Positions 1,122-22,304 of a stretch of DNA of 22,304 nucleotides are shown one piece after another. The DNA is from Candidatus Thorarchaeota archaeon (lineage in GTDB: Archaea; Asgardarchaeota; Thorarchaeia; Thorarchaeales; Thorarchaeaceae), in NCBI GenBank assembly GCA_011364905.1, contig RDNZ01000031.1, positions 1 to 22,304 on the forward strand, in the 5' to 3' direction. Each line of letters begins with the position of its first letter. The first letter of the stretch is position 1. A model generated the notes under the pieces. The model saw only the letters and a program-made list of their open reading frames with translations. It did not search any database and had not been told where the DNA came from. The position numbers were made by a program, and so were the translations under genes.

Positions 1122-1937
1122 TCAAGGAGGTCCTTTCCCAATTTTTTCAAGATACTTATCAAATTCATCTCCCATCATGACTTCGACATACCAAGTCATA
1201 CCAAGAGCCTCGGATTCCTTAATCCATGAGTCTTTTTCCGGATCTCCACTGGATATTCCCATAATTACAATGTCATAGTCCTTCATAGACTCTCGATGCT
1301 TTTTGACATAGTTTGTTACATCGGAATATTCCTCCAGAGACATGTCTTCACTCATCGATAATGGAAACACACCATCGTATCTTGCCGCTCTTCGGAATGG
1401 AGCTTTTATTGGCCAGGTTCCTGCACACCATATCGGCACACGTGGTCGTTGAATGGGGCGAGGGTTGAATGTGACATCATCAATAGTGTAGTGTTTTCCA
1501 GAGAATGAGAATGGCTTGCCAGACCAAAGACCCTCAAGAATTGCTAAAGACTCGTCCAGTCTCTCTGCTCTCTCTTTGAGAGTAGTGTCTTCTCCAAACT
1601 TTCTATAATCATTATCACGAGAACCTCCCAATCCAACTCCTAAAATGAACCTTCCCTTAGAGAGAATATCTAAAGCAGCGACCTCCCTTGCTACCACCTG
1701 TGGGCGGCGTCTTGGTAGAGGTGTCACTGTTGTACCAATTCGAATCTTTTCAGTGCATGCTGCTACGGCTGCAAGTGTGATCCATGGATCTGCAATCAAT
1801 TGTTCTTTTCCTGCATAATTGTGGTCCCACATAAAGAACCCATCCCACCCTGCATCTTCAGCAGCAACTGCCAATTCAAGGAATTTATTGGGATCTCCTT
1901 GAAGTGCAAAATTTGAGATATAGACTCCATATTTCAT
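1122..1937 (-). CDS. LLM-class flavin-dependent oxidoreductase (luciferase-like)
   Basis: AEDAGWDGFFMWDH, DPWITLAAVAACTEKIRIGTTVTPLPRRRP, LDILSKGRFILGVGLG, PRPIQRPRVPIW; ends in GPP. Confidence 0.92.
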   Translation of the reverse strand: MKYGVYISNFALQGDPNKFLELAVAAEDAGWDGFFMWDHNYAGKEQLIADPWITLAAVAACTEKIRIGTTVTPLPRRRPQVVAREVAALDILSKGRFILGVGLGGSRDNDYRKFGEDTTLKERAERLDESLAILEGLWSGKPFSFSGKHYTIDDVTFNPRPIQRPRVPIWCAGTWPIKAPFRRAARYDGVFPLSMSEDMSLEEYSDVTNYVKKHRESMKDYDIVIMGISSGDPEKDSWIKESEALGMTWYVEVMMGDEFDKYLEKIGKGPP

Positions 1938-2056
1938 CCCAGTTCACCAATGAATGAGCTGAGTACCCTAGTGATATTATGTTCACTCACTTTTTCTGAG
2001 TGTTTTTTCAGAGGTTATCTGCAAACCCTTTCGAACTGTCATCATGATTCTTGAAA

Positions 2057-2959
2057 TCAAGTTAAGTGCATAACAGCTTCTGAAACTGCCTGCTCGAACT
2101 CGAGACCCTCGAATAGAATACGTTTAGGATTCTTCACGATGTAAGCAAATGAGTATGTGATACCATATAGTTGATTGTAAGAGAAGATGTATTCGGGTTT
2201 CTCTATGAAGTGCGACGAGAACTCTTCGCATAGATCGTCAAACCTAGCTCGTGCCTTCATACTATCAAAATTGATGTTGACATTAACATCAAATGTGCGT
2301 CGGTAGATTTCTTCACCTTTTGTAAGACTACGCAGAGTACTAACCGCTGAGTCTAACCTTCTAGACTTGTGATTCTCCTTGTCTTCCTCAACTTCAAGCT
2401 CACGCTCAGCAATATAATCGTCCACTCGTACTCTGAAGTTCTTCACATTCGATGTCACAACTTTGCTGTTTGGGACATTCAGTCTGGTGTGGTTTTTTTG
2501 TAACAGCCGCGTATAATTCAGAGTGATTTCTAACACAAGTCCCTCTGCATCACCAATCACAACATAGTCTCCGACTCTAAATGGACGTGCTCCCAGCACA
2601 TAGATGCCACCAAGAAGATTTGACATAGCTTGTGAGAAAGCAAGGCCAATTGCAGTTCCAAGAAGGGCGCCTAGTGCTACAACTCCAGTACTAATCGCAT
2701 TTGTTAGGCTTAAGATAGCTACTAGAGCTATGGCAAAGAAAACCAAACGGATTCCAAAAATAACACCGGATGATGCTTCTCTTGATATGCCCGCTTTTCG
2801 AAAGGATATTTTCACCGCTCGGACCACAACTAAGTATACTATATAGATGATAGCCAAAAAAGGAATGATTGCAACGAATATTGCATAGTTTCCTAATCCA
2901 AACGGATTTAGGAAATCGCCTATTATTTTTACAAATTCTGAAAACGGATCGAATTGCAC
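2057..2959 (-). CDS. mscS: Small-conductance mechanosensitive channel (MscS family)
   Basis: Three TM segments, then GLAFSQAMSNLLGGIYVLGARPFRVGDYVVIGDAEGLVLEITLNYTRL...VPNS; GTG start preceded by GAGGG. Confidence 0.88.
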   Translation of the reverse strand: MQFDPFSEFVKIIGDFLNPFGLGNYAIFVAIIPFLAIIYIVYLVVVRAVKISFRKAGISREASSGVIFGIRLVFFAIALVAILSLTNAISTGVVALGALLGTAIGLAFSQAMSNLLGGIYVLGARPFRVGDYVVIGDAEGLVLEITLNYTRLLQKNHTRLNVPNSKVVTSNVKNFRVRVDDYIAERELEVEEDKENHKSRRLDSAVSTLRSLTKGEEIYRRTFDVNVNINFDSMKARARFDDLCEEFSSHFIEKPEYIFSYNQLYGITYSFAYIVKNPKRILFEGLEFEQAVSEAVMHLT

Positions 2960-3205
2960 TTGAGTCCCTCGTTGTTGTTGTTTTTTGTGGCATCAAACTC
3001 TTTGGTTCTTGGTTTTTAATCTAGATGTTTTCAACTCTTGGCCTCAAAAAAAGGAATCTCTCAACAGATGCAAAAGGACGGTAGTGCTTTTTGAAACAAA
3101 AAGCTATGAAACATTGTTTCATTTCTCCGATCGTTAAATTCAGCTCTTTCTGAATTGATGAGATGAGCACAGTTAAAATGAAGCCTCTATAACCTGTTTT
3201 CTAGA

Positions 3206-3826
3206 ATGACGAACATCTTCCGAAAAACCATACTCGATAAATTTGCAAAACAAGTGCCAGAGCTCGAGAGTTCATTACGAAAGGCAAAGATGAAGCTTGA
3301 ACCAACACTTCAGCCTCCGTTCAATATGCTCATGAGGTCAATCCTCTATCAACAACTAGCATACAAAGCAGCGAAAACAATCCATGACCGTTTTCTTGCT
3401 CTCGTAGGCAAACTCACACCAACCAATGTATTGTCCAAGACGCAAGAAGAGCTACGTTCCGTCGGTCTCTCAAGACAAAAGGCATCCTATATGCATAACG
3501 TGGCTGAAGCTTTTGGCAAGGGTGGTTTTCTCTGGAAGTATCGCAAGATTGAGTCTCTCTCGAACCTATCTACAAAGGAAATCATTGACCTATTCATTCA
3601 GATTAAGGGTGTGGGCATATGGACTGTTCAGATGTACTTGATCTTCTCGCTTGGTCGTTTAGATGTCCTCTCTTCAGGAGACCTTGGTGTTAGAAAAGGC
3701 GTTATGAAACTCTATGGTCTTGATAAGATGCCTACGCAAAAAGAGGTTGATGCTCTAGCTGAACCTTGGCATCCCTTGGAAACCGTAGGAACTTTCCTAG
3801 CATGGCGTGTTCTCGACGAAACGTGA
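3206..3826 (+). CDS. alkA: DNA-3-methyladenine glycosylase II family (HhH-GPD, AlkA-like)
   Basis: LMRSILYQQLAYKAA, LRSVGLSRQKASY, HhH motif IKGVGIWTVQMYLIF, catalytic Asp in GDLGVRK, and W-x-P near the C-terminus. Confidence 0.9.
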   Translation: MTNIFRKTILDKFAKQVPELESSLRKAKMKLEPTLQPPFNMLMRSILYQQLAYKAAKTIHDRFLALVGKLTPTNVLSKTQEELRSVGLSRQKASYMHNVAEAFGKGGFLWKYRKIESLSNLSTKEIIDLFIQIKGVGIWTVQMYLIFSLGRLDVLSSGDLGVRKGVMKLYGLDKMPTQKEVDALAEPWHPLETVGTFLAWRVLDET

Positions 3827-3843
3827 ATGACTGGGGCGTCGCT

Positions 3844-4866
3844 TTATCCAGCCTCCATTATCCAATTATATTCATGATTGAAGATGTCTGTCAATGCGTT
3901 CTTTCTTGATTCGTCAATGAAAGCCATCCCTACTCCGTTCAATGAGATTTGGAACAACTCCTGAATCGAGAAGTCAAGATGTTTGTGAATCTGAATATAC
4001 TCGTTATTCAGATCAGTGTGAAAGAGTGATGGATCATCAGAACCTACAGTGACTAAGAGTCCCCTGTCATAGAATTCTCTGATCGGATGCTCTCTGATTG
4101 ATTTGACAACACCAGTCCTAAGATTACTAACGGGATTCATTTCAATTCCGATTTGTTTCTCCTTGAGATAGTTGAGCAGCTTCGGGTCTTCGCGTGCAGT
4201 TACACCATGACCTATGCGTTCAACGTCAAGATATTTTATGGCATCCCAGATAGATTTGGGTCCTGCTGCTTCTCCAGCATGTGCAACAAGATGCAGTCCC
4301 ATCCCATATGCTCGTTTGTATGCCTCCGCAAATGGTCTTGGTGGAAATAGAGGTTCATTCCCTCCAATGTCTACCGATACGATGTTCTGTGGATTTTCTT
4401 CAATCAAGTCCAAAACTTCCATTGCTTCATCCTGGGTTGAGCTTCGAACGAGGTCAATCCGAATGTTGGATTCAATCCCAAAAGAGGTTCTGGCACGATT
4501 TATTCCTCGATTGATTGCCTTCACCATCCTAGAAAAATCAAGATTATGTTGGAGATGATCTCTAGGCGAAAAACTCGCCTCAACATAATGAGTGTTGCAT
4601 TCGGCGCATTTCTTGAGCATGTCGTAAGTGATGCGCTCGAAATGCTTCTCATTCGTTATGTACCCTATGATTTCCATATACACCTCAATGAAATGTGCGA
4701 AGTCTGAATACCGGAATCGTCGAGTGATATCTTCTACTGTTTCATACGGTGCATCCAACCCATCCTCTCTAATAATCGATAGTAGCGTCGAAGGCTGTAA
4801 TGAACCGAGTGTATGAACATGGAGCTCGACTTTCGGAAGCGCTCTGATTGCATCATTGATATTCAT
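3844..4866 (-). CDS. add: Adenosine/adenine deaminase family protein
   Basis: LPKVELHVH, AHAGE, ERIGHG, PVSN, GSDDP metal-binding and catalytic motifs. Confidence 0.9.
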   Translation of the reverse strand: MNINDAIRALPKVELHVHTLGSLQPSTLLSIIREDGLDAPYETVEDITRRFRYSDFAHFIEVYMEIIGYITNEKHFERITYDMLKKCAECNTHYVEASFSPRDHLQHNLDFSRMVKAINRGINRARTSFGIESNIRIDLVRSSTQDEAMEVLDLIEENPQNIVSVDIGGNEPLFPPRPFAEAYKRAYGMGLHLVAHAGEAAGPKSIWDAIKYLDVERIGHGVTAREDPKLLNYLKEKQIGIEMNPVSNLRTGVVKSIREHPIREFYDRGLLVTVGSDDPSLFHTDLNNEYIQIHKHLDFSIQELFQISLNGVGMAFIDESRKNALTDIFNHEYNWIMEAG

Positions 4867-4996
4867 TGCTGTATATTTTCACTCCAGGTCATTTATGTAA
4901 ATAACGATGTGAAATCGCCTGTCTAGGTATTGCCTTTTTGCACCTATCTATAAATCTCAAAAGGCGGATTGTATCTAGTTCATTACTCAATTTGGT

Positions 4997-6184
4997 GTGA
5001 GCATTATGAGCGATAGGAAGAGAAAACCTGCTACACTCTGTGTACAAGGTGAAAACTCACAGACATCAGGTCCTGCAGTTGCTCCCATAGTACAGGCATC
5101 GACCTTTGTATTCGAGAATCAACAGCAAATGCTGGATTCGGTGCAAGGGAAGACAGGAAAAGATGTGTATACTCGATGGAGCAATCCCACAACCAAGAAT
5201 GTCGAGGAAAAACTGAATGCTCTTGAAGGTACAGAAGATACTCATGTTGTAGCTTCGGGGATGGCAGCCATTGCCTCTGCCATAATGGGCCTTGTAAAGA
5301 ATGGAGAGAGAGTTCTATCGAGTGATTCGATTTATGGTGGGACATTCAATCTCTTCAATAAAATACTCTCGCAAATTTGCATGGAAATTGATTATGTTGA
5401 TACTGATGCGGTAGCTGATACTCTTGAAGACTCTGGTTCCAAGTACAAGCTGTGTTTCTTTGAAACTCCGACCAATCCCACTCTGAAAATCATCGATATT
5501 AAGAAAGTTGCAGATGCCGCACAGAGTACTGGGACAATCAGCCTTATTGACAGTACCTTTGGCTCACCAATCAATCAGAGACCCTATACCCTAGGCATTG
5601 ATCTCGTCATGCATAGCGCTACTAAGTATCTTGGCGGCCATAGCGATATCATTGCTGGAACCATTTCAGGGTCAAAGGAACTGATGAGTGAGGTTCGCTC
5701 AGCCGCAAAGCTCCTCGGAGGCACGATGGACCCATTTGCCTCGTTTCTGCTTGATCGAGGGATCAAGACTCTTGAAGTCCGAGTTGCCAAGCACAATTCG
5801 AATGCAAGTTACCTTGCTGAGAATCTCTCTCGAGACTCTAGGGTTAGAGAGGTCCACTACCCAGGTCTCCCGAGTCATCCCCAGCATGATATTGCAAAGA
5901 AGCAAATGTATGGTTTTGGCGGAATGATGGCTGTGACCCTAGACACTGATCTGGCAGGCACGAGTAGGTTTGTAGACTCGCTTAAGATCTTCCTAAATGC
6001 AGTGTCACTTGGCGGAGTGGAAAGCCTTGCGAGTATCCCTGCACTCACGACACATTATGGTATTGATGAGAAGTCACTCAACGAGATGGGGATCTCAAGC
6101 TCAACAGTCCGTCTCTCAGTCGGGATAGAGGATCAAGAAGATTTACTGGATGATTTGATGGCTGGCCTAGACGTATTGTCCTGA
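4997..6184 (+). CDS. Cys/Met metabolism PLP-dependent enzyme (cystathionine/methionine gamma-lyase or gamma-synthase family)
   Basis: YTRWSNPT, SGMAAI, YGGT, ETPTNP, HSATKYLGGHSD (PLP Lys intact), SLGGVESL, VRLSVGIED; start may be the ATG at 5006. Confidence 0.92.
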   Translation: MSIMSDRKRKPATLCVQGENSQTSGPAVAPIVQASTFVFENQQQMLDSVQGKTGKDVYTRWSNPTTKNVEEKLNALEGTEDTHVVASGMAAIASAIMGLVKNGERVLSSDSIYGGTFNLFNKILSQICMEIDYVDTDAVADTLEDSGSKYKLCFFETPTNPTLKIIDIKKVADAAQSTGTISLIDSTFGSPINQRPYTLGIDLVMHSATKYLGGHSDIIAGTISGSKELMSEVRSAAKLLGGTMDPFASFLLDRGIKTLEVRVAKHNSNASYLAENLSRDSRVREVHYPGLPSHPQHDIAKKQMYGFGGMMAVTLDTDLAGTSRFVDSLKIFLNAVSLGGVESLASIPALTTHYGIDEKSLNEMGISSSTVRLSVGIEDQEDLLDDLMAGLDVLS

Positions 6185-14690: not shown

Positions 14691-16541
14691 TTAGTCATCC
14701 ATGTACGGGTCTTCATCAATATCGATGTCTGCGTAGCCAACATCCCTCAATAGGTCTTCAATCGACTCAGCTCCAGTGACCCATGAGAGTGCCCATTCTC
14801 CATCATCGTGGAGATTCAATTCCACATCCGGGAGGTCTCCGAGCAGGTTGTGGTCCATCTCTATAGTATCTTGATATGCTCCTGCAAGTGCTAGGACAAA
14901 GCAAGATCCTCGAACATTCCCAAGATTACCAACTGGAATCCCATCGCCCATCATGCCCCCGGGTGTTGTCAAGAGCCTATTGTCCTTGGTAAACCATACG
15001 CTATCTGTATGTGGTCGATAAAACTGAGTTATCTCACCATCGGAATCGCATGTTATGTCCACGAGCCGGACAGTGGTTTGTGGTTTCACATGGAGATCAC
15101 TAATAGGAAGAACTGGAAAATGCTGTTGTACCAAGACGTGGTCAGCGACGCTGTTAAAGACACTGAAGTTACCGATTACAATGTGCTCCGGGCGCCAAAA
15201 GTTTCTGAGAAGACCATCAATCTCATAGGACTTTAGATTCAATTCGACAAGTTTCGATCTCACTGCATCCTCAAGAGTCCCTGTTATCATCTCTTGCTCA
15301 AAGATGAATTTCATCCCTTTCAGATTCAAACCGCCATATTTCTCATGGAATTCGTTCCAAATCTCTCGAAGGTTTTCCAAAGTGGAGGCTTCCTTGATTC
15401 TTTCGAGGGTTGGTTTGACATCCTCTTCAGAGACTTCTGAAATGCTTCGTTTCTCAGGCGACGGAAAGATTGATCGCACTTCGAGAGCCTCTACAATGAC
15501 CATGGATGCAAGTGCTGTGACACCTCTACCCGACTCTATCATGATGTTTGGTGGTGGATGTTTTCTCCCTATTTCGGAGAGTTGCGACTTCACTCCCGAC
15601 ACGAGGAGATGTGCATATTGATACATCAGATCTGGTGTAAGCGAGCTTGTATAGTCAATTGCTAAGCCTCCTCCGAAGTCAATACTTGCAAGCTCAGTTA
15701 ATCCGAAATCCCGAAGTTCAGCATAGAATTGCGTTAGAAGCTTTCCAAATCTCTCGAAGGCTTCAATCTCAGTTATTTGTGAACCTGCATGGGCAAGGAT
15801 GGTTTTGACTGAACTGGAGAAACCGCTTTTTTGTAGCAGTTCGACAACATCATAGAGGTCATGAATACTCAGGCCAAACTTGGAGTCTCTTCCAGTGGAA
15901 TGCGACCAATGTCCTTGCACACTCAGATATGGCTTGATTCGCAGCACAAGGTTGGTTTCATCAGGCTTGAAGCGCTCAACAATCAAGCTGAGTTCATGGA
16001 CCGACTCCACCGATATGGCTATGTTGTATCCCTCATCCACACACTGTTTGATCAACTTCAGATACTCGACGTCCTTGGCGCCATTGCATACAATGGGCCT
16101 ATGCTTTTCACTCTCGATGACATGTTTGATGAGGAGGAGCTCCGCCTTTGTCCCTGCTTCCAGCCCATAGTCTGAGTCTGAGCGAATGACTGCAGTGACA
16201 CAGTCTTTCCGTTGATTCACCTTCACGGGATAAATGCCTATGAAACTACCCGCATATTCAAGCTCGCTCATTGCACGATCGAATGCCGCCCTTAGTTTCT
16301 TGATTTGATATGTGATTAGCTGTGGCACACGCAAGGTAAACGACGAGGTATAGCTCGGGGCGTTTCCATTCATTTGCTTTATTCTCTGAATGATTTCTTT
16401 GAAAGTGATGAACTTGTCACCAAGTATTAGAGAGAGGTCTCCATCTTCTGTGATGTCCAGAAAGTGGAGGTCATTACGGTTTACGCCATAAATCCATCGC
16501 GAGTCATCTAGTGACCAAGTTTCTTCTACCAATAGATTCAC
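14691..16541 (-). CDS. speA: Biosynthetic arginine decarboxylase (PLP fold-type III, SpeA-like)
   Basis: YPVKVNQ (PLP Lys), GLEAGTKAEL, CNGAKD, SKFGL, HAGSQI, DFGGGL, ESGR, NFSVF, DITCDSDG, GAYQ, HNLLG; start may be TTG 16532 after AGGTGA. Confidence 0.88.
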   Translation of the reverse strand: MNLLVEETWSLDDSRWIYGVNRNDLHFLDITEDGDLSLILGDKFITFKEIIQRIKQMNGNAPSYTSSFTLRVPQLITYQIKKLRAAFDRAMSELEYAGSFIGIYPVKVNQRKDCVTAVIRSDSDYGLEAGTKAELLLIKHVIESEKHRPIVCNGAKDVEYLKLIKQCVDEGYNIAISVESVHELSLIVERFKPDETNLVLRIKPYLSVQGHWSHSTGRDSKFGLSIHDLYDVVELLQKSGFSSSVKTILAHAGSQITEIEAFERFGKLLTQFYAELRDFGLTELASIDFGGGLAIDYTSSLTPDLMYQYAHLLVSGVKSQLSEIGRKHPPPNIMIESGRGVTALASMVIVEALEVRSIFPSPEKRSISEVSEEDVKPTLERIKEASTLENLREIWNEFHEKYGGLNLKGMKFIFEQEMITGTLEDAVRSKLVELNLKSYEIDGLLRNFWRPEHIVIGNFSVFNSVADHVLVQQHFPVLPISDLHVKPQTTVRLVDITCDSDGEITQFYRPHTDSVWFTKDNRLLTTPGGMMGDGIPVGNLGNVRGSCFVLALAGAYQDTIEMDHNLLGDLPDVELNLHDDGEWALSWVTGAESIEDLLRDVGYADIDIDEDPYMDD

Positions 16542-16570
16542 CTTTGAAGGGCTCTTTTAACAAGGTCTGA

Positions 16571-18049
16571 CTATCCTTCATCTTCACGAATTGAGTCGAG
16601 CATCCCCTGAAAAGCACGGGCAAGCTCGCCAATCTCATCATCTTTTGCGGTATAAGTCGTGTCCACTTGAAGGTCTCCAGTATCAAGAGGTTTGTCTAGA
16701 ATCCTTGCTGCAGCATTTCTTTCTGCCAGGTCAATGAGATACTGTAATGGCCTAGTAATAGTATTCGAAATGGCAACAGCCGCTATGCCCGCTATCAAAA
16801 TGCCTCCGACTGTAACTAGGATAATATAGGTCGCAGCTTGAGTATTCTGGTTGGCGATACGAGCCTGAAGCAGTGGAATACTTTCTAGCACTTCGTTTAG
16901 CGGGACTGATATCACACAGATGTAATCACCCTTGCCTACTTGTGTGAATACTAGAATATGTTCAGTTCCTCCTCGAGTATATCTGAGGGTTCCTGAGGTT
17001 CCAACGGCTACACTAGTGATTTGGTTGATATTGGCATCTGTCAATGCTGAAGTGAAGTCCGGATTGACCTCCACATTACGAAGATCCGGTAGACCACCAA
17101 TGTAATCCTCATCACTAACCTCCGGATGCGCTACTACACCTCCAGCCGAATCGACTAGAAATGCATACCCGCTCTCCAGAATCTTGACATTGATTACTTT
17201 CTCCCTGATGTCTTCTATGGTGATGTCTCCGGAGATGACGGCAAATGGAATACTGTTTCTATATACCACTCTCCCGATTGAGATTAGAAGCACATTATCG
17301 AATTCATCATAGTATGGTTCAACAAACACCACGTCGCCATTTCCCGCCCAGATTGTCTGATACCAATCTTCTCCTCTTGGGTCATAGGGATTTGCCAATC
17401 TTGCTGGATCAGTAAGCTCTCCAAGAATACTACCTGGATAGTTTATGAATAGTCCATCATCAGCAAAAGCGATGTAGAGCCATCTGAACGCCAACTGATT
17501 GTGTATCGCTTTGAAGATGTAGTCCATATTGGATACCCGTCCAAGTTTGTCGGCATTCGCAGGAATGTCCGCATAGCTTGAATTGTAGTTGACGGAAGTT
17601 GTCCCTGCAACATACCAGCTGCTATAGTCCCATGACACATTCAGGCCATAATTGGGATCATAGTGATTATCGCTTGGCGCAGGAGAAACGCTGTCGTCTT
17701 CGAACAAAAGGTCATAGTATACTTCTCGATAGGCGTATGTTGAGCCGGCATCAAATAAAGCCTCGAGTTCTTCTGCTGCAGCCGCAATCATTCCTTCTGC
17801 ACTGGCCAACTTTTGGTTAATCACTAGAGCGGTCTTTTGAGCGGTTTCATTCATATTCGTTTGAATTTGATTCTCCAGAGCCTGTGAACTCTGGTCTCTT
17901 GTTGAGTTACCTATTAGATTCACAAAAGTCAGTGAAACCAGACCGGTTGCAGTTAATGATACAAGTGAGATTACTAAGAAAGTAAGAATCACATTTGTTC
18001 GGAATTTCCCCTTCTTCTTGGTTTGGGTTGTTGACTGTACCATTCTCAT
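16571..18049 (-). CDS. Membrane receptor-like protein TM-dCache_1-TM-HAMP with no output domain
   Basis: TM1 VILTFLVISLVSLTATGLVSL; dCache motifs YDPRGEDWY, EPYYD, ISGDITI, GYAFLVDSAGGVVAHP; TM2 YIILVTVGGILIAGIAAVAI; HAMP ITRPLQYL...DEIGELARAFQGML then stop. GGAGGTG SD at 18052-18058 (ATG 18049 or 18043). Confidence 0.88.
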   Translation of the reverse strand: MRMVQSTTQTKKKGKFRTNVILTFLVISLVSLTATGLVSLTFVNLIGNSTRDQSSQALENQIQTNMNETAQKTALVINQKLASAEGMIAAAAEELEALFDAGSTYAYREVYYDLLFEDDSVSPAPSDNHYDPNYGLNVSWDYSSWYVAGTTSVNYNSSYADIPANADKLGRVSNMDYIFKAIHNQLAFRWLYIAFADDGLFINYPGSILGELTDPARLANPYDPRGEDWYQTIWAGNGDVVFVEPYYDEFDNVLLISIGRVVYRNSIPFAVISGDITIEDIREKVINVKILESGYAFLVDSAGGVVAHPEVSDEDYIGGLPDLRNVEVNPDFTSALTDANINQITSVAVGTSGTLRYTRGGTEHILVFTQVGKGDYICVISVPLNEVLESIPLLQARIANQNTQAATYIILVTVGGILIAGIAAVAISNTITRPLQYLIDLAERNAAARILDKPLDTGDLQVDTTYTAKDDEIGELARAFQGMLDSIREDEG

Positions 18050-18059
18050 CGCACCTCCT

Positions 18060-20933
18060 TTAATAATCGGTAGTGGTTCCTCCAACCTCCATTTGTGCCA
18101 TTAGCACTCCGACTTTCTCAAATGCTCTCTCAATATCTAACCGAACATTTGTGCTATCAACCACAGAGATGTACTGCCCCTCCGGAATCCCTTCACATAT
18201 AGATTGCAGAAGTTCCTCTGTGGTTATTGGTTGCCCTGTGGTGCCTGATCTGATTCTTTTATCAGTGTCCGCTCTATTATTGAGTTCCTGCCCAACACCA
18301 ATGATCAGTAGATTGACATCCAAATGATGGTCTCGAATGAAGCCCTCGATTGTCAGTGGTCTCTTTCTTTTCATTCTGTCCTTTTCTGTGACAATACCCT
18401 CAAGAACATCCAAAGAGTACCTCTTTGAGCTGTTGTCTTGGCCATCAGTCAAAGCGATGACCCATCGATGCTCGCTTGATTCAATCCTCTCAAGCTCTTC
18501 AAGTGCTCGGCCAAGAGCATCATAGAATGCAGTGGCGTAGTTGGGATATTTCAGAGATTTCAATACTCTAACAATTTTATTCTCCTCATCTTCACTCTCT
18601 CCCTTGATTGTCAGCGGAAGCAATTCTCGATAGGATGAGTTGAATACTATCACTGACACTTGATCCTGCGGATTGACTTGAGAATGAAGTATCTCTAGGG
18701 CTCCTCTAACAGCCGCTCTTATCCGATTCTGAGCCTGCATACTGCCTGAATAGTCAATCACGAATGTGACACTCTTTCTGAACATGATTGAGCGCCGCAG
18801 TTTCTCAGCTTTTCGTCTGACTTCATGACTTGGCTCGTTACGCTGGTCAAGAACATCTGCCAGCCGCTGCAACGCATAAACAACCAGCCAGAGCTCATCA
18901 GTGTCTTGACCGAGTCCGATTGCTTCGTTATATGCCCCTTCTGCCTTCTTCCATTTTCCTTGAACCTGATTCAACTCACCTTCATGAAATTGGATATAGG
19001 CAAGGCTTCTGATATAGTCAATCGATTTTGCTATCTCTTTTGCCTCATTGAATCTGGATTGAGCTTGACTGTAACGTCCATCATGCATCAGTACAAGTCC
19101 CATCGCGTCGAAACGTTTTGCTAGACCATACTGATTCTTTAATGTCCGGTCGATGGCTTCAGCATCTTCTAGGAGCTTCATTGCCTTATCGGCGTGTCCA
19201 CGATCCATCTCAACAAGTGCCATGTTATGATAGAGAGAAGCTATTCTTTGCATTGCGTCTCTCTCATCTGCACCCTCTTCCTTAGTTCTCTGTAGAATTC
19301 TCTGTGCGATGGCCATGGATTGTGAATAGTAATCCATTGCATTTCCTGTATCGCCTCTTTGCCTGAACACATTTCCAATGTTGAGGAGCATTGTCTGCTC
19401 TCCAACATCGATTTGAAGTCGTCTACTTATTTCAAGCAAATTCTGGTAGTTTGCCAACGCCCGATTAAGGTCGCCGCGAATGAATGCCTGGTTGCCAAAT
19501 CGCGCTGCTTCTTGAAAACTAAGAAGCGCATCAACCGTGGTACCCACTTCTTCATACATCGCCCCTGCTGCTGTGATTCCTCTCGTGAAGTCTTGACGCG
19601 CCATTTTATTGACAAGACGAGTCATCTCAGTGATTGGCTCAATCACCGCATTGGCTCTTCTATAGGAAGCAGCGGCTACAACTCCTGCGACCATCGCAAG
19701 AACAGCTCCTAAAGCAATAGTTAGAATTAACGTCTGTGCACCCACAAGATGAAGCATATTGCTTGCTGGAGCAATCACATCCGAGTCGGGAACAACAATG
19801 GCTAGTATATACTCCGTATTCGTGATATTGGCAAAGGCCATATGCCATGTTTGTCCATTCTTTTGGAATTCCAGCTGACCTGCTTCATAGACCAGAACGT
19901 TGGAGTTGAGTTGATTATCGAACTCGATAGCCTCAGGACTTGTTGTGCTCCCGAATTCCAAAGTTTCAATGGGGAGGGGATCATCAAAAACACCAAGATC
20001 TGGGTGTGCAACTACGACACCGTTTCTATCAAGTAGATATGAATATCCGTTGTCCAGTACGTCGAGGTTCAACACTTTTTGGTTGATTGTTGCCATAGTC
20101 ACATCTGCAGACACAACGCCAATCAGTGTTCCATCGTCGAATCTGACTGGTCTTCCCATGGAGATGACTAGACCCACTGATGGATCAACATATGGCTCCG
20201 TGAAAACAACGCTGTTATCACTGGGATCTTGTGCTACCACATTTGTGTACCAGTCTTCTGCATTAGGGTCATAATCTTGCGCAGGTGGGACTGGATTTCC
20301 ATCTTCATCCTGCTGGAAATAGATGAGGTTGTCAAATGGATAGTTTCTGAAGAGATGTTGGTCGGATATGTTAAGGTCGAATCCCATGTATAGCCATCTG
20401 TAATCCTCATTCATTTGATGCAGAGACCTGAAGATGTTGACCATGTTGGATGAAACGTCCAGAGCATATTGTGTTCCAGGTGAGAGATCATGCGGGTCGT
20501 TATTGTTCCATGCAAAACGCGGCATGTAATAACAATCAGTTTGAAACGTGATATTATTTGAAAAATAGGCCTCGACAATACTAGGGTCTGTTTCAAAGGT
20601 GAGATCCCCCCAGTTGGGCTCTTCTAGGGGGTCCCAATAATAGCTGTACTGCGCCGTCGCATTTATCCGTTCATTGAACAAGTCTTCGCAGTAAGCCTCC
20701 ATCATATAGACGCCATCTACGTAGTTCTGCCATCTCTCTTCAATGAATAGACTTGTGTCATTAGCAAGTCTCATGAGATTAGCTAATTCTTCTGTCTTCA
20801 GCTCCCCTGCAGCATCGGATGCGTTTGCATTTGACAGGTCGTTTATTGCGAGTATCGATAATGTCGAAATGACCAAAATCGGGATTAGTGCAACGGTGAC
20901 GAATGTGATTACTATTCTTTTTGAAATCCTCAT
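18060..20933 (-). CDS. Membrane receptor TM-dCache_1-TM-HAMP-TPR-VWA
   Basis: TM1 IVITFVTVALIPILVISTLSIL; YDPNAEDWY, TEPYVD, VVSADVT, GYSYLLDRNGVVVAHP; TM2; HAMP VIEPITEMTRLVNKMARQDFT...EEVGTTVDAL; about 5-6 TPRs; VWA with DYSGS, ATAFYDAL and LTDG (complete MIDAS). Confidence 0.9.
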   Translation of the reverse strand: MRISKRIVITFVTVALIPILVISTLSILAINDLSNANASDAAGELKTEELANLMRLANDTSLFIEERWQNYVDGVYMMEAYCEDLFNERINATAQYSYYWDPLEEPNWGDLTFETDPSIVEAYFSNNITFQTDCYYMPRFAWNNNDPHDLSPGTQYALDVSSNMVNIFRSLHQMNEDYRWLYMGFDLNISDQHLFRNYPFDNLIYFQQDEDGNPVPPAQDYDPNAEDWYTNVVAQDPSDNSVVFTEPYVDPSVGLVISMGRPVRFDDGTLIGVVSADVTMATINQKVLNLDVLDNGYSYLLDRNGVVVAHPDLGVFDDPLPIETLEFGSTTSPEAIEFDNQLNSNVLVYEAGQLEFQKNGQTWHMAFANITNTEYILAIVVPDSDVIAPASNMLHLVGAQTLILTIALGAVLAMVAGVVAAASYRRANAVIEPITEMTRLVNKMARQDFTRGITAAGAMYEEVGTTVDALLSFQEAARFGNQAFIRGDLNRALANYQNLLEISRRLQIDVGEQTMLLNIGNVFRQRGDTGNAMDYYSQSMAIAQRILQRTKEEGADERDAMQRIASLYHNMALVEMDRGHADKAMKLLEDAEAIDRTLKNQYGLAKRFDAMGLVLMHDGRYSQAQSRFNEAKEIAKSIDYIRSLAYIQFHEGELNQVQGKWKKAEGAYNEAIGLGQDTDELWLVVYALQRLADVLDQRNEPSHEVRRKAEKLRRSIMFRKSVTFVIDYSGSMQAQNRIRAAVRGALEILHSQVNPQDQVSVIVFNSSYRELLPLTIKGESEDEENKIVRVLKSLKYPNYATAFYDALGRALEELERIESSEHRWVIALTDGQDNSSKRYSLDVLEGIVTEKDRMKRKRPLTIEGFIRDHHLDVNLLIIGVGQELNNRADTDKRIRSGTTGQPITTEELLQSICEGIPEGQYISVVDSTNVRLDIERAFEKVGVLMAQMEVGGTTTDY

Positions 20934-20973
20934 CTATTTTCCACCACTTCCATGAAAATAATCATAATCAATG

Positions 20974-22304
20974 CTAGCTGCTCCAGTTTGCTAACTCCTC
21001 CAACAATTTCCTTTGGAAATCATCGATATCCTGTTTCTCTTCCAGGATAAACTCATCTCCTGAGAGTGATCCCTCTACAGATCCTTCACCAAGAAGAATA
21101 ATTAGTGTCCGCCGCAAGATTCGACGATCCACACCAGTTTCTTGTTCAAGTTGCCGAACATCTAATGAATTCGTACCACGCAGTAGGTTACGAAGAGTTT
21201 CAGGTACCTTCTGAATGCTTTTTCTCGAGGGTGCAGGTATCTTCTTTTTCTTTGTCGATTCTGTTCGTACGAACATGTTTCCATCAATATGTCCCTCTAT
21301 CACATCACTTTGAATCATCGCTTGAAGACTACGCCGCAAGTTGTATGCCGCCGGTCTAGGCAGAGTCCGTCGCAGAATTCGGTCGAGGTCTTTGAGCTTG
21401 ATTCTGTTATGTTTCGATGTTATTGAATCAATGCTCTCTTGGATGTACTCCTCGATCACGTATTCTTCAATCATCTCCAGTTGAGCTCCACATGATGGAC
21501 AAGTAGAAGCTTCTGGTGATGTCGGAGCCCCGCAGTTTCCGCATTTGATTGCTCTTCTGTAAAGAACTGTCTTCGTTGAACTGATCTGTTGGAGAATTAC
21601 TTTGTCAGTCCTTGTGACCTTTCCAGACTCCTGCACTTCCCAAAAGCTGAGTTTTCGATCTTTTGTGCTCAATACAAGAAATGCGACATCCGATATGTCA
21701 TCTGGAACTCCCGTAGCCATGGCTCTTGGTGTATCTCCTATATCTAGTCTATCAACCTCATTTCCGTCAAGGTCCCAGATTCGAAGAGTTGACGTCTGAT
21801 CCCCAGTTATGAATAAAGTCCGGCTTTCAAATGAGAGTACGGCAAAAACTGTAAGATGCGACCCCAACTGCAATTCTTTGAGCTGGTATCCAGCTGCCGT
21901 TAGAACAATCACCAGCCCAGTTTTGTCAGCAACTACAATCTCCAGTTCTGAGTCTTTTGTTATATCCTCTAACCAAACATCTGCAATTGGATTTCGCATC
22001 GTCCTCGTAAAGATTGCATCTGTATCATCATTGTAAAGGATCAATCGGTTGTTTTGTAGCCCTACTGCAACCTCAGCTGCATCATCTCCATCTATATCTC
22101 GCGCATCACATGCCACTACATTGCTCTCCAATCTGATATTCCAGACTGGGGTCCCACGATGATCGACTACCAATACCTTCTTCCCGACGCCCCCTACAAG
22201 GGCATCTTTTCCCTCACCTTCTACATCAGCAACAGCAATACATCGGACTTTGCTGCTCCACTTTCGGGAATCCCTCAACATTCCCTTTGCATCAAAAACC
22301 CTCA
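20974..22304 (-). CDS. Partial (5' end beyond window): FG-GAP-like beta-propeller + Zn ribbon + two PCI-like winged helices
   Basis: Frame stays open to the window edge (..RVFDAKGMLRD); blades ADVEGEGKDALVGG, RDIDGDDAAEVAVG, EDITKDSELEIVVA, TGDQTSTLRIWD, STKDRKLSFWE; CGNC-x10-CPSC; two wH-like segments ending VIEGHIDGNMF and SVEGSLSGDEF. Confidence 0.75.
   Translation of the reverse strand, partial: RVFDAKGMLRDSRKWSSKVRCIAVADVEGEGKDALVGGVGKKVLVVDHRGTPVWNIRLESNVVACDARDIDGDDAAEVAVGLQNNRLILYNDDTDAIFTRTMRNPIADVWLEDITKDSELEIVVADKTGLVIVLTAAGYQLKELQLGSHLTVFAVLSFESRTLFITGDQTSTLRIWDLDGNEVDRLDIGDTPRAMATGVPDDISDVAFLVLSTKDRKLSFWEVQESGKVTRTDKVILQQISSTKTVLYRRAIKCGNCGAPTSPEASTCPSCGAQLEMIEEYVIEEYIQESIDSITSKHNRIKLKDLDRILRRTLPRPAAYNLRRSLQAMIQSDVIEGHIDGNMFVRTESTKKKKIPAPSRKSIQKVPETLRNLLRGTNSLDVRQLEQETGVDRRILRRTLIILLGEGSVEGSLSGDEFILEEKQDIDDFQRKLLEELANWSS

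Follow-up and report, generated by a model that had tools for sequence, protein, structure and literature searches.

The alpha2delta proteins, which are the targets of gabapentinoid drugs, and CACHD1 have a first dCache_1 domain composed of a segment called VWA_N and of the Cache portion that follows an inserted VWA domain (PDB 8x90_B, 7vfs_B, 8if4_A and 8s7c). VWA_N is the Pfam name for the N-terminal half of this domain. The Cache-VWA module of alpha2delta has been portrayed as an invention of eukaryotes that was built upon a Cache domain of bacterial origin, in that the eukaryotic dCache_1 is derived from bacteria and the VWA insertion is dated to the eukaryotes' last common ancestor (LECA) (PMC8915833). 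We found no paper in a literature search that ties Asgard archaea to the Cache/alpha2delta/VWA module. Among bacterial relatives, the dCache_1AA receptors (PctA/B/C, Mlp24, Mlp37 and CtaA) have domains of ~240 amino acids without an insertion between helices alpha1 and alpha2, retain a carboxylate-binding arginine in the pocket, and use a methyl-accepting signalling domain as output. Here we describe two neighbouring genes of a Candidatus Thorarchaeota archaeon (GCA_011364905.1, contig RDNZ01000031.1), located in a stretch of 22,304 nucleotides (positions 1 to 22,304, called the window, to which coordinates refer unless another locus is named), that encode the proteins P0001 (receptor A) and P0002 (receptor B). 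These conserved Thorarchaeota receptors with two transmembrane (TM) segments probably belong to an insertion-bearing dCache_1 subfamily that is found mainly in Asgard archaea, carries a counterpart of VWA_N, and is a cousin of the alpha2delta Cache module.

Both genes lie on the minus strand, and each product is a predicted two-TM sensor with a dCache_1 ectodomain (Table 1). In Pfam scans, P0001 scores 61.7 bits against dCache_1 (PF02743, cut-off 45 bits) and 30.8 bits against HAMP, and P0002 scores 63.9 bits against dCache_1 and 54 bits against TPR_12, in addition to the VWA matches given in Table 1. A six-frame search of the genome (80.8% complete) located dCache_1 in P0001 and P0002 at 64 and 66.4 bits, and these are its sole dCache_1 genes. 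Each protein has one uninterrupted dCache_1 match, and both exhibit the dCache_1 layout of a long stalk helix and membrane-distal and membrane-proximal PDC modules, with a TM segment on either side. About 200 homologues of P0001 were found, and every named one is from Asgard archaea, Thorarchaeota for the most part. The layout of P0002 is kept in about 140 homologues, of which the named ones are likewise Asgard and nearly all Thorarchaeota. Both architectures are retained down to ~50% identity. The longest open reading frame (ORF) of gene A begins at a TTG and shares 26 nucleotides with the end of gene B; because homologues measure 484 to 492 amino acids, translation probably begins at the ATG at 18049 or close by.

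The initial annotation, made from the nucleotide sequence, proposed that both paralogs have a long insertion early in the Cache domain, and the strings it quoted are found in the ectodomains, on the minus strand and between two hydrophobic segments: for P0001 these are YDPNYG, beginning at 17662, and EDWY, with its end at 17360, and for P0002 they are FETDP, beginning at 20597, and NYP at ~20345. The insertion is real. A conserved segment of ~65 residues occupies the position between alpha1 and alpha2 of each ectodomain, and has no equivalent in solved bacterial dCache domains. In AlphaFold2 (AF2) models of the ectodomains, whose mean predicted local distance difference test (pLDDT) values are 77.5 (P0001) and 85.6 (P0002), this segment follows the long stalk helix alpha1 and precedes the usual alpha2-beta1-beta2 unit, the WY helix and both PDC modules. 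Solved bacterial dCache domains (~237 to 250 amino acids) cover just ~236 to 248 of the 360 to 368 model residues. Across 22 or 23 members of each family, spanning identities down to ~50%, family A shows the insertion pattern NVSW.YSSW without variation, and family B the pattern ISF..C.YMP almost without variation. The two families are paralogous and align to each other through the insertion, which therefore predates the A/B duplication.

The resemblance to the first dCache_1 of alpha2delta and CACHD1 comprises the stalk helix, an elaborated alpha1-alpha2 segment, the alpha2-beta1-beta2 unit, the WY pocket helix, and the distal and proximal PDC modules. Common sequence motifs are VYY[DN], D-x-N-[FY]-G, [IV]-S-[FWY], S-x-[LM]-D-x-[IV]-F, W-x-Y/F-x-G and R-x-Y-P. 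The alpha2delta motifs in the initial annotation were compared with the actual sequences (...VVYYNAKDD... in alpha2delta-1, and FDGNFNTNVSRTVS in CACHD1). YDPxxxxWY is also present in the window pair, but cannot be taken as specific to alpha2delta: it is a generic dCache_1 ligand-pocket motif that aligns to PctB and matches the AA_motif of amino-acid sensors (PMC8915833). When the P0002 model was compared with known structures, alpha2delta-1 was the top match in Foldseek (E-value 1.4e-12, TMq 0.60 to 0.65, with bacterial domains at 0.55 or less) and in VIA, where ~300 residues align at a root-mean-square deviation of 2.8 to 2.9 and 21 to 22% identity. Bacterial domains align over ~236 residues in VIA, such that alpha2delta-1 extends ~65 residues beyond any of them at a similar deviation.

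Profile searches connect the N-terminal halves of these receptors to VWA_N (PF08399, gathering cut-off 34.7 bits) through related families. When the halves of individual Thorarchaeota members were scanned against Pfam, VWA_N was the family that matched the most members (6 of 23 for A and 4 of 21 for B), and dCache_1 matched only one. These VWA_N matches, all sub-threshold at 13 to 20 bits, span profile positions 54 to 126 at most; the alpha2-beta1-beta2/pocket region corresponds to positions ~54 to 126 in family A members and 71 to 124 in the four B members (best E-value 0.0013). A search with VWA_N over 400 genomes of the phylum gave matches in 62 at E<=0.1, compared with 0 of 14 control genomes. 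The cut-off was passed in five genomes of another Asgard family (f21), at 34.7 to 42 bits and over profile positions 9 to 125 at most, always in A-type ORFs that adjoin B-type ORFs. An N-terminal profile of these f21 A-type proteins finds alpha2delta-1 (E-value 1.6e-4) and CACHD1 (4.4e-4) in the PDB, with all bacterial dCache domains at 0.027 or weaker. In that alignment, the second half of the insertion and the sequence downstream fall on alpha2delta-1 residues 151 to 244, including 'gygaqlvsfdysmyhlapdvy', with the counterpart of the REVYYD...YDPNYGLNVSWDYSSWY motif of the A insertion on residues 151 to 175. Family A aligns with the N-terminus of the f21 A-type proteins in hhalign over 165 columns that include the insertion (Prob 99.6, E-value 6e-24).

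Family B leads to a second set of Asgard proteins, in which a VWA occupies the alpha2delta position. Its N-terminus aligns in hhalign with that of these Cache[VWA] proteins, insertion included (Prob 96.9, E-value 1.9e-10), and an N-terminal profile of the latter finds only CACHD1 (4e-8) and alpha2delta-1 below an E-value of 1 in the PDB. In the metagenomic protein P0295 (L051:1416-4397, plus strand, 993 amino acids), YDPTVRPWY of the first Cache leads straight into an inserted VWA, and this Cache precedes a second Cache, a TM segment and a Zn-ribbon tail. The protein is encoded in a prokaryote-style operon with 4-nucleotide gene overlaps, and the second of its Cache domains scores 40.2 bits against Pfam VWA_N, above the cut-off. 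A phylum-wide search with P0295 detected proteins of ~600 amino acids, with the order TM, Cache[VWA], TM, in other Asgard families (L052-L062), and each of their genes is adjoined by a second Cache gene. Examples are P0397 (L056:1366-3162, minus strand) and P0396 (L054:1402-3189, plus strand; 'hypothetical protein CEE45_10555' of Ca. Heimdallarchaeota B3_Heim), whose relatives are Hodarchaeales and Kariarchaeaceae by source name. Residues 152 to 484 of P0396 are collinear with alpha2delta-1 residues 176 to 533 in one stretch (E-value 6e-18), and the match to CACHD1 has an E-value of 8e-21.

These Heimdall-group proteins share the insertion-bearing dCache_1 subfamily, the phylum and a two-TM ectodomain with the window pair. 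Unlike the pair, they carry the VWA directly after YDPRxRPWY, keep the pocket arginine, and form a separate clade. In a midpoint-rooted FastTree phylogeny of 131 domains, which was restricted to rows with at least 70% profile occupancy and left out 28 sequences, the VWA-inserted proteins (9 tips, support 0.994) are sister to their partner Cache domains, and the two together (13 tips, support 0.958) lie apart from the A-type clade (52 tips, support 0.977) and the B-type clade (47 tips, support 0.961). The f21 receptors group in the same A and B clades as the Thorarchaeota pair.

We interpret the insertion together with the alpha2-beta1-beta2 unit as the prokaryotic counterpart of VWA_N, and the window pair as neither a direct forerunner nor a permuted copy of alpha2delta. 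The likeness of the pair to alpha2delta is real but indirect. The two receptors are cousins only, because their Cache is uninterrupted, the VWA of P0002 is predicted to be cytoplasmic and is dissimilar to the inserted VWA, and the pocket arginine is replaced by glutamate. Other differences from alpha2delta and CACHD1 are that neither protein has a VWA after the WY motif, that each has a single dCache_1 with no second nested dCache, that two TM anchors feed into cytoplasmic HAMP, TPR and VWA parts, and that both proteins fall below any VWA_N threshold.

Tentatively, the Asgard insertion-bearing subfamily, taken as the pair plus the VWA-inserted relatives of the Heimdall group, might be the archaeal source that gave rise, by vertical descent, to the first dCache_1 of alpha2delta and CACHD1 in eukaryotes. 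If this is true, the module targeted by gabapentin would be older than eukaryotes, in contrast to its published origin at LECA from a bacterial transfer. The occurrence in one phylum of VWA_N-type receptors and of relatives with a VWA at the same residue makes the origin of the module directly testable by phylogeny, and the family supplies small two-TM archaeal proteins suited to studying what the VWA_N segment does. Somewhat more doubtful is the proposal that the Asgard subfamily was gained by horizontal transfer from eukaryotes or bacteria, which would make the likeness uninformative on eukaryotic origins. Archaeal Cache domains have been ascribed to transfer from bacteria (PMC8915833), and members of the subfamily are found in a Deltaproteobacteria metagenome-assembled genome (MAG) and in a protist. 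However, 75 of the 85 genomes in the window's family contain the A/B pair, relatives occur in several further Asgard families, and the conserved gene order of the locus implies long residence in Asgard archaea.

It is unlikely that the two proteins are usual prokaryotic dCache_1 sensors whose extra loop is peculiar to their lineage, and that their alpha2delta likeness is merely the similarity common to dCache_1 domains. Negative results first suggested this view, and the following observations weigh against our preferred interpretation. P0001 and P0002 have no VWA_N match at E<=1 when the whole proteins are scanned against Pfam, nor at E<=10 when their N-terminal halves are scanned alone, and PF08399 has no match at E<=10 in the whole genome. 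Searches of the PDB with the N-terminal halves returned nothing relevant at E<=10 in phmmer, and Thorarchaeota family profiles of these halves returned no Cache, alpha2delta or CACHD1 at E<=10. A PDB profile search with the whole domains is led by the bacterial amino-acid chemoreceptor Mlp24 (E-values of 1.6e-12 and 1.6e-16), and gives CACHD1 at 3.8e-8 and 1e-13 and alpha2delta-1 at 3e-4 and 2.5e-7; over the entire dCache_1, both Mlp24 and PctA outscore the two eukaryotic proteins. HMMER similarity to alpha2delta is significant for the second half of the insertion only, with the first half adding ~2 to 3 bits. The P0001 insertion is modelled at low confidence (pLDDT ~40), and alpha2delta ranks 14th in VIA and 40th in Foldseek with this model, tied rather than first. 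Structures of alpha2delta were part of the training set of AF2, which means that the structural match does not count as wholly independent evidence. The tree contains no alpha2delta, CACHD1 or eukaryotic Cache[VWA] sequences, its only tip of eukaryotic source being a B-type protein from a protist. Finally, the WY motif is common to dCache_1 domains at large.

The generic view was revised because of the per-member Pfam scans, the search of representative proteins and the Asgard-wide VWA_N search. When the N-terminal half is scored alone, bacterial Cache domains are lost or fall behind alpha2delta-1 and CACHD1; VWA_N rather than dCache_1 is what this region matches in the most members, and counterparts of the same architecture pass its cut-off. 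The suggestion in the initial annotation of a prokaryotic relative of the alpha2delta Cache lineage thus stands for the N-terminal half, which is of VWA_N type as judged from the f21 proteins and from the top structural match of P0002. It falls short in that the window proteins score above the cut-off for dCache_1 and not at all for VWA_N, that bacterial chemoreceptors are the better match over the whole domain, and that alpha2delta-1 is first in Foldseek for P0002 but not for P0001, whose insertion is poorly modelled.

The same annotation correctly described the Cache as uninterrupted and the VWA of P0002 as C-terminal: dCache_1 is a single stretch, and the VWA follows TM2 and the TPR array. 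Its further idea, that the two modules of alpha2delta occur here in a different order, did not hold up. The location of the P0002 VWA behind TM2 and the TPR array places it in the cytoplasm by predicted topology, unlike the extracellular MIDAS (metal ion-dependent adhesion site) VWA of alpha2delta. A BLASTP match between the P0002 VWA and the VWA inserted in P0396 is not significant (E-value 48), and the best PDB match of the P0002 VWA is TRAP (1e-5). Receptors with the Cache-TPR-VWA layout are widespread and constitute a type in their own right. Although one chain does combine a Cache of VWA_N type with a VWA whose MIDAS is intact, it is highly improbable that receptor B is a permuted alpha2delta, with the same Cache and the same VWA relocated, in a direct line of descent to or from the eukaryotic protein, because this is contradicted by the topology, by the dissimilarity of its VWA to the Asgard inserted VWA, whose proteins align collinearly to alpha2delta-1, by the separate clade of B-type receptors, and by the presence of the B layout in a cluster member named for a Deltaproteobacteria MAG and in a protist transcriptome.

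These receptors might work as follows. A small ligand would bind in the pocket of the distal module, and the signal would pass through TM2 and the HAMP domain or HAMP-like linker. In receptor B it would then reach the cytoplasmic TPR-VWA scaffold, whose intact MIDAS may engage a cytoplasmic partner. Receptor A, which has no output domain, would probably act as a co-receptor of B. The HAMP-TPR-VWA arrangement adds an uncharacterised type of receptor output.

The pocket itself hints at the class of ligand. Amino-acid sensors of the dCache_1AA class carry the AA_motif Y-x4-R-x-W-Y ... Y ... D (Gumerov et al. 2022), and amine sensors of the dCache_1AM class have their AM_motif within the pocket of the distal module (Cerna-Vargas et al. 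2023, PMC10589655). Both window families have Y-D-P-x-x-E-x-W-Y, in the form YDPRGE[DY]WY in A and YDPNAE[DE]WY in B. They depart from the AA_motif in that Y, W, Y, Y and D are kept while a conserved glutamate replaces the carboxylate-binding arginine, a residue also present in the YxxxxRxWY motif of alpha2delta. The retention of the amino-group-binding Y, Y and D and of the tryptophan, together with the change of this arginine to glutamate, suggests that the ligand is cationic or amine-like rather than an amino acid. The adjacent decarboxylase-like gene fits an amine ligand without proving it. The substitution in both partners, encoded beside such an enzyme, is a further feature that the window pair adds. 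The residue at the arginine position is glutamate or aspartate in Thorarchaeota A and B proteins (17360-17386 and 20247-20273 in the window), and the f21 A and B proteins keep YDPRxRxWY (L064, L067). A and B appear to have changed specificity together, because both are altered in Thorarchaeota and both bear the arginine in f21.

A profile of both ectodomains searched against 1.84 billion representative sequences retrieved 127 proteins at E<=1e-30. Most of them keep the insertion and the motifs, and many are of A type (~480 amino acids) or B type (~900 amino acids). Members with a named source are from a Hodarchaeales MAG, a Promethearchaeota MAG, a cluster with a member named for a Deltaproteobacteria MAG, and the transcriptome of a protist (Platysulcus tardus). 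The Deltaproteobacteria-named protein P0394 (MBC8392621.1) belongs to the B-type cluster represented by P0271, a Cache-HAMP-TPR-VWA protein with the insertion, and because of this name the subfamily may extend beyond Asgard archaea. The protist protein P0296 (EukProt EP00753, 1015 amino acids) has an insertion-bearing Cache, a weak TPR and a C-terminal VWA, which is the B-type layout. The Thorarchaeota ectodomain profile matches it at 190.8 bits, and contamination of the transcriptome is possible.

Table 1. Positions in the window of the two receptor genes, their parts and the conserved neighbouring genes.
Feature	Positions	Strand	Description
Receptor A (P0001), 504 amino acids from TTG	16571..18085	-	TM1, dCache_1 ectodomain, TM2, HAMP; no output domain after HAMP
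Ectodomain of A, residues 56-415	16841..17920	-	Long alpha1 helix, distal and proximal PDC modules
Insertion of A, residues ~111-174, between alpha1 and alpha2	17564..17755	-	Contains REVYYD...YDPNYGLNVSWDYSSWY; invariant columns in family
alpha2-beta1-beta2 and pocket motif of A	17360..17563	-	LGRVSNMDYIF...FRWLYIAF...LFINYPGS...YDPRGEDWY
Receptor B (P0002), 957 amino acids	18060..20933	-	TM1, dCache_1 ectodomain, TM2, HAMP-like linker, TPR array, C-terminal VWA
Ectodomain of B, residues 31-398	19740..20843	-	
Insertion of B, residues ~87-151	20481..20675	-	Contains QYSYYWD...AYFSNNITFQTDCYYMP; pLDDT 68-91; conserved in family B
alpha2-beta1-beta2 and pocket motif of B	20247..20480	-	ALDVSSNMVNIFRSLH...YRWLYMGF...LFRNYP...YDPNAEDWY
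TPR array of B, residues ~479-700	18834..19499	-	Predicted cytoplasmic; TPR_12, TPR_MalT and other Pfam matches
VWA of B, residues ~722-882	18288..18770	-	Predicted cytoplasmic; DYSGS MIDAS motif; VWA_2 53.3 bits, VWA 40.9 bits
P0003, downstream conserved neighbour	14691..16541	-	Arginine/ornithine decarboxylase-like pyridoxal phosphate enzyme; Orn_Arg_deC_N 87.4 bits
P0004, upstream conserved neighbour	20974..22281	-	Beta-propeller, Zn ribbon, helical tail (Pfam scan)

The genes flanking the receptors are conserved with them. The order propeller/Zn-ribbon gene, B, A and arginine-decarboxylase-like gene (14691-22281 in the window) is collinear in 49 Thorarchaeota loci (L001-L049) wherever the contig reaches, and the propeller and decarboxylase genes were found in 41 and 42 of these loci, respectively. 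One locus on a complete Thorarchaeota chromosome (L027, CP070658.1) has gene A and the decarboxylase gene, with no B or propeller gene within 6 kb upstream. The pairs in f21 resemble that of the window in their two architectures, in the order B then A, and in having a propeller neighbour. They differ in keeping YDPRxRxWY, in A-type proteins that pass VWA_N (38.5 to 42 bits), and in the site of the propeller gene, which lies downstream of A in f21 and upstream of B in Thorarchaeota. At the f21 locus L064, for example, B is at 3230-5959, A (dCache_1, VWA_N at 38.5 bits and HAMP) at 1787-3214, and the propeller gene at 592-1728.

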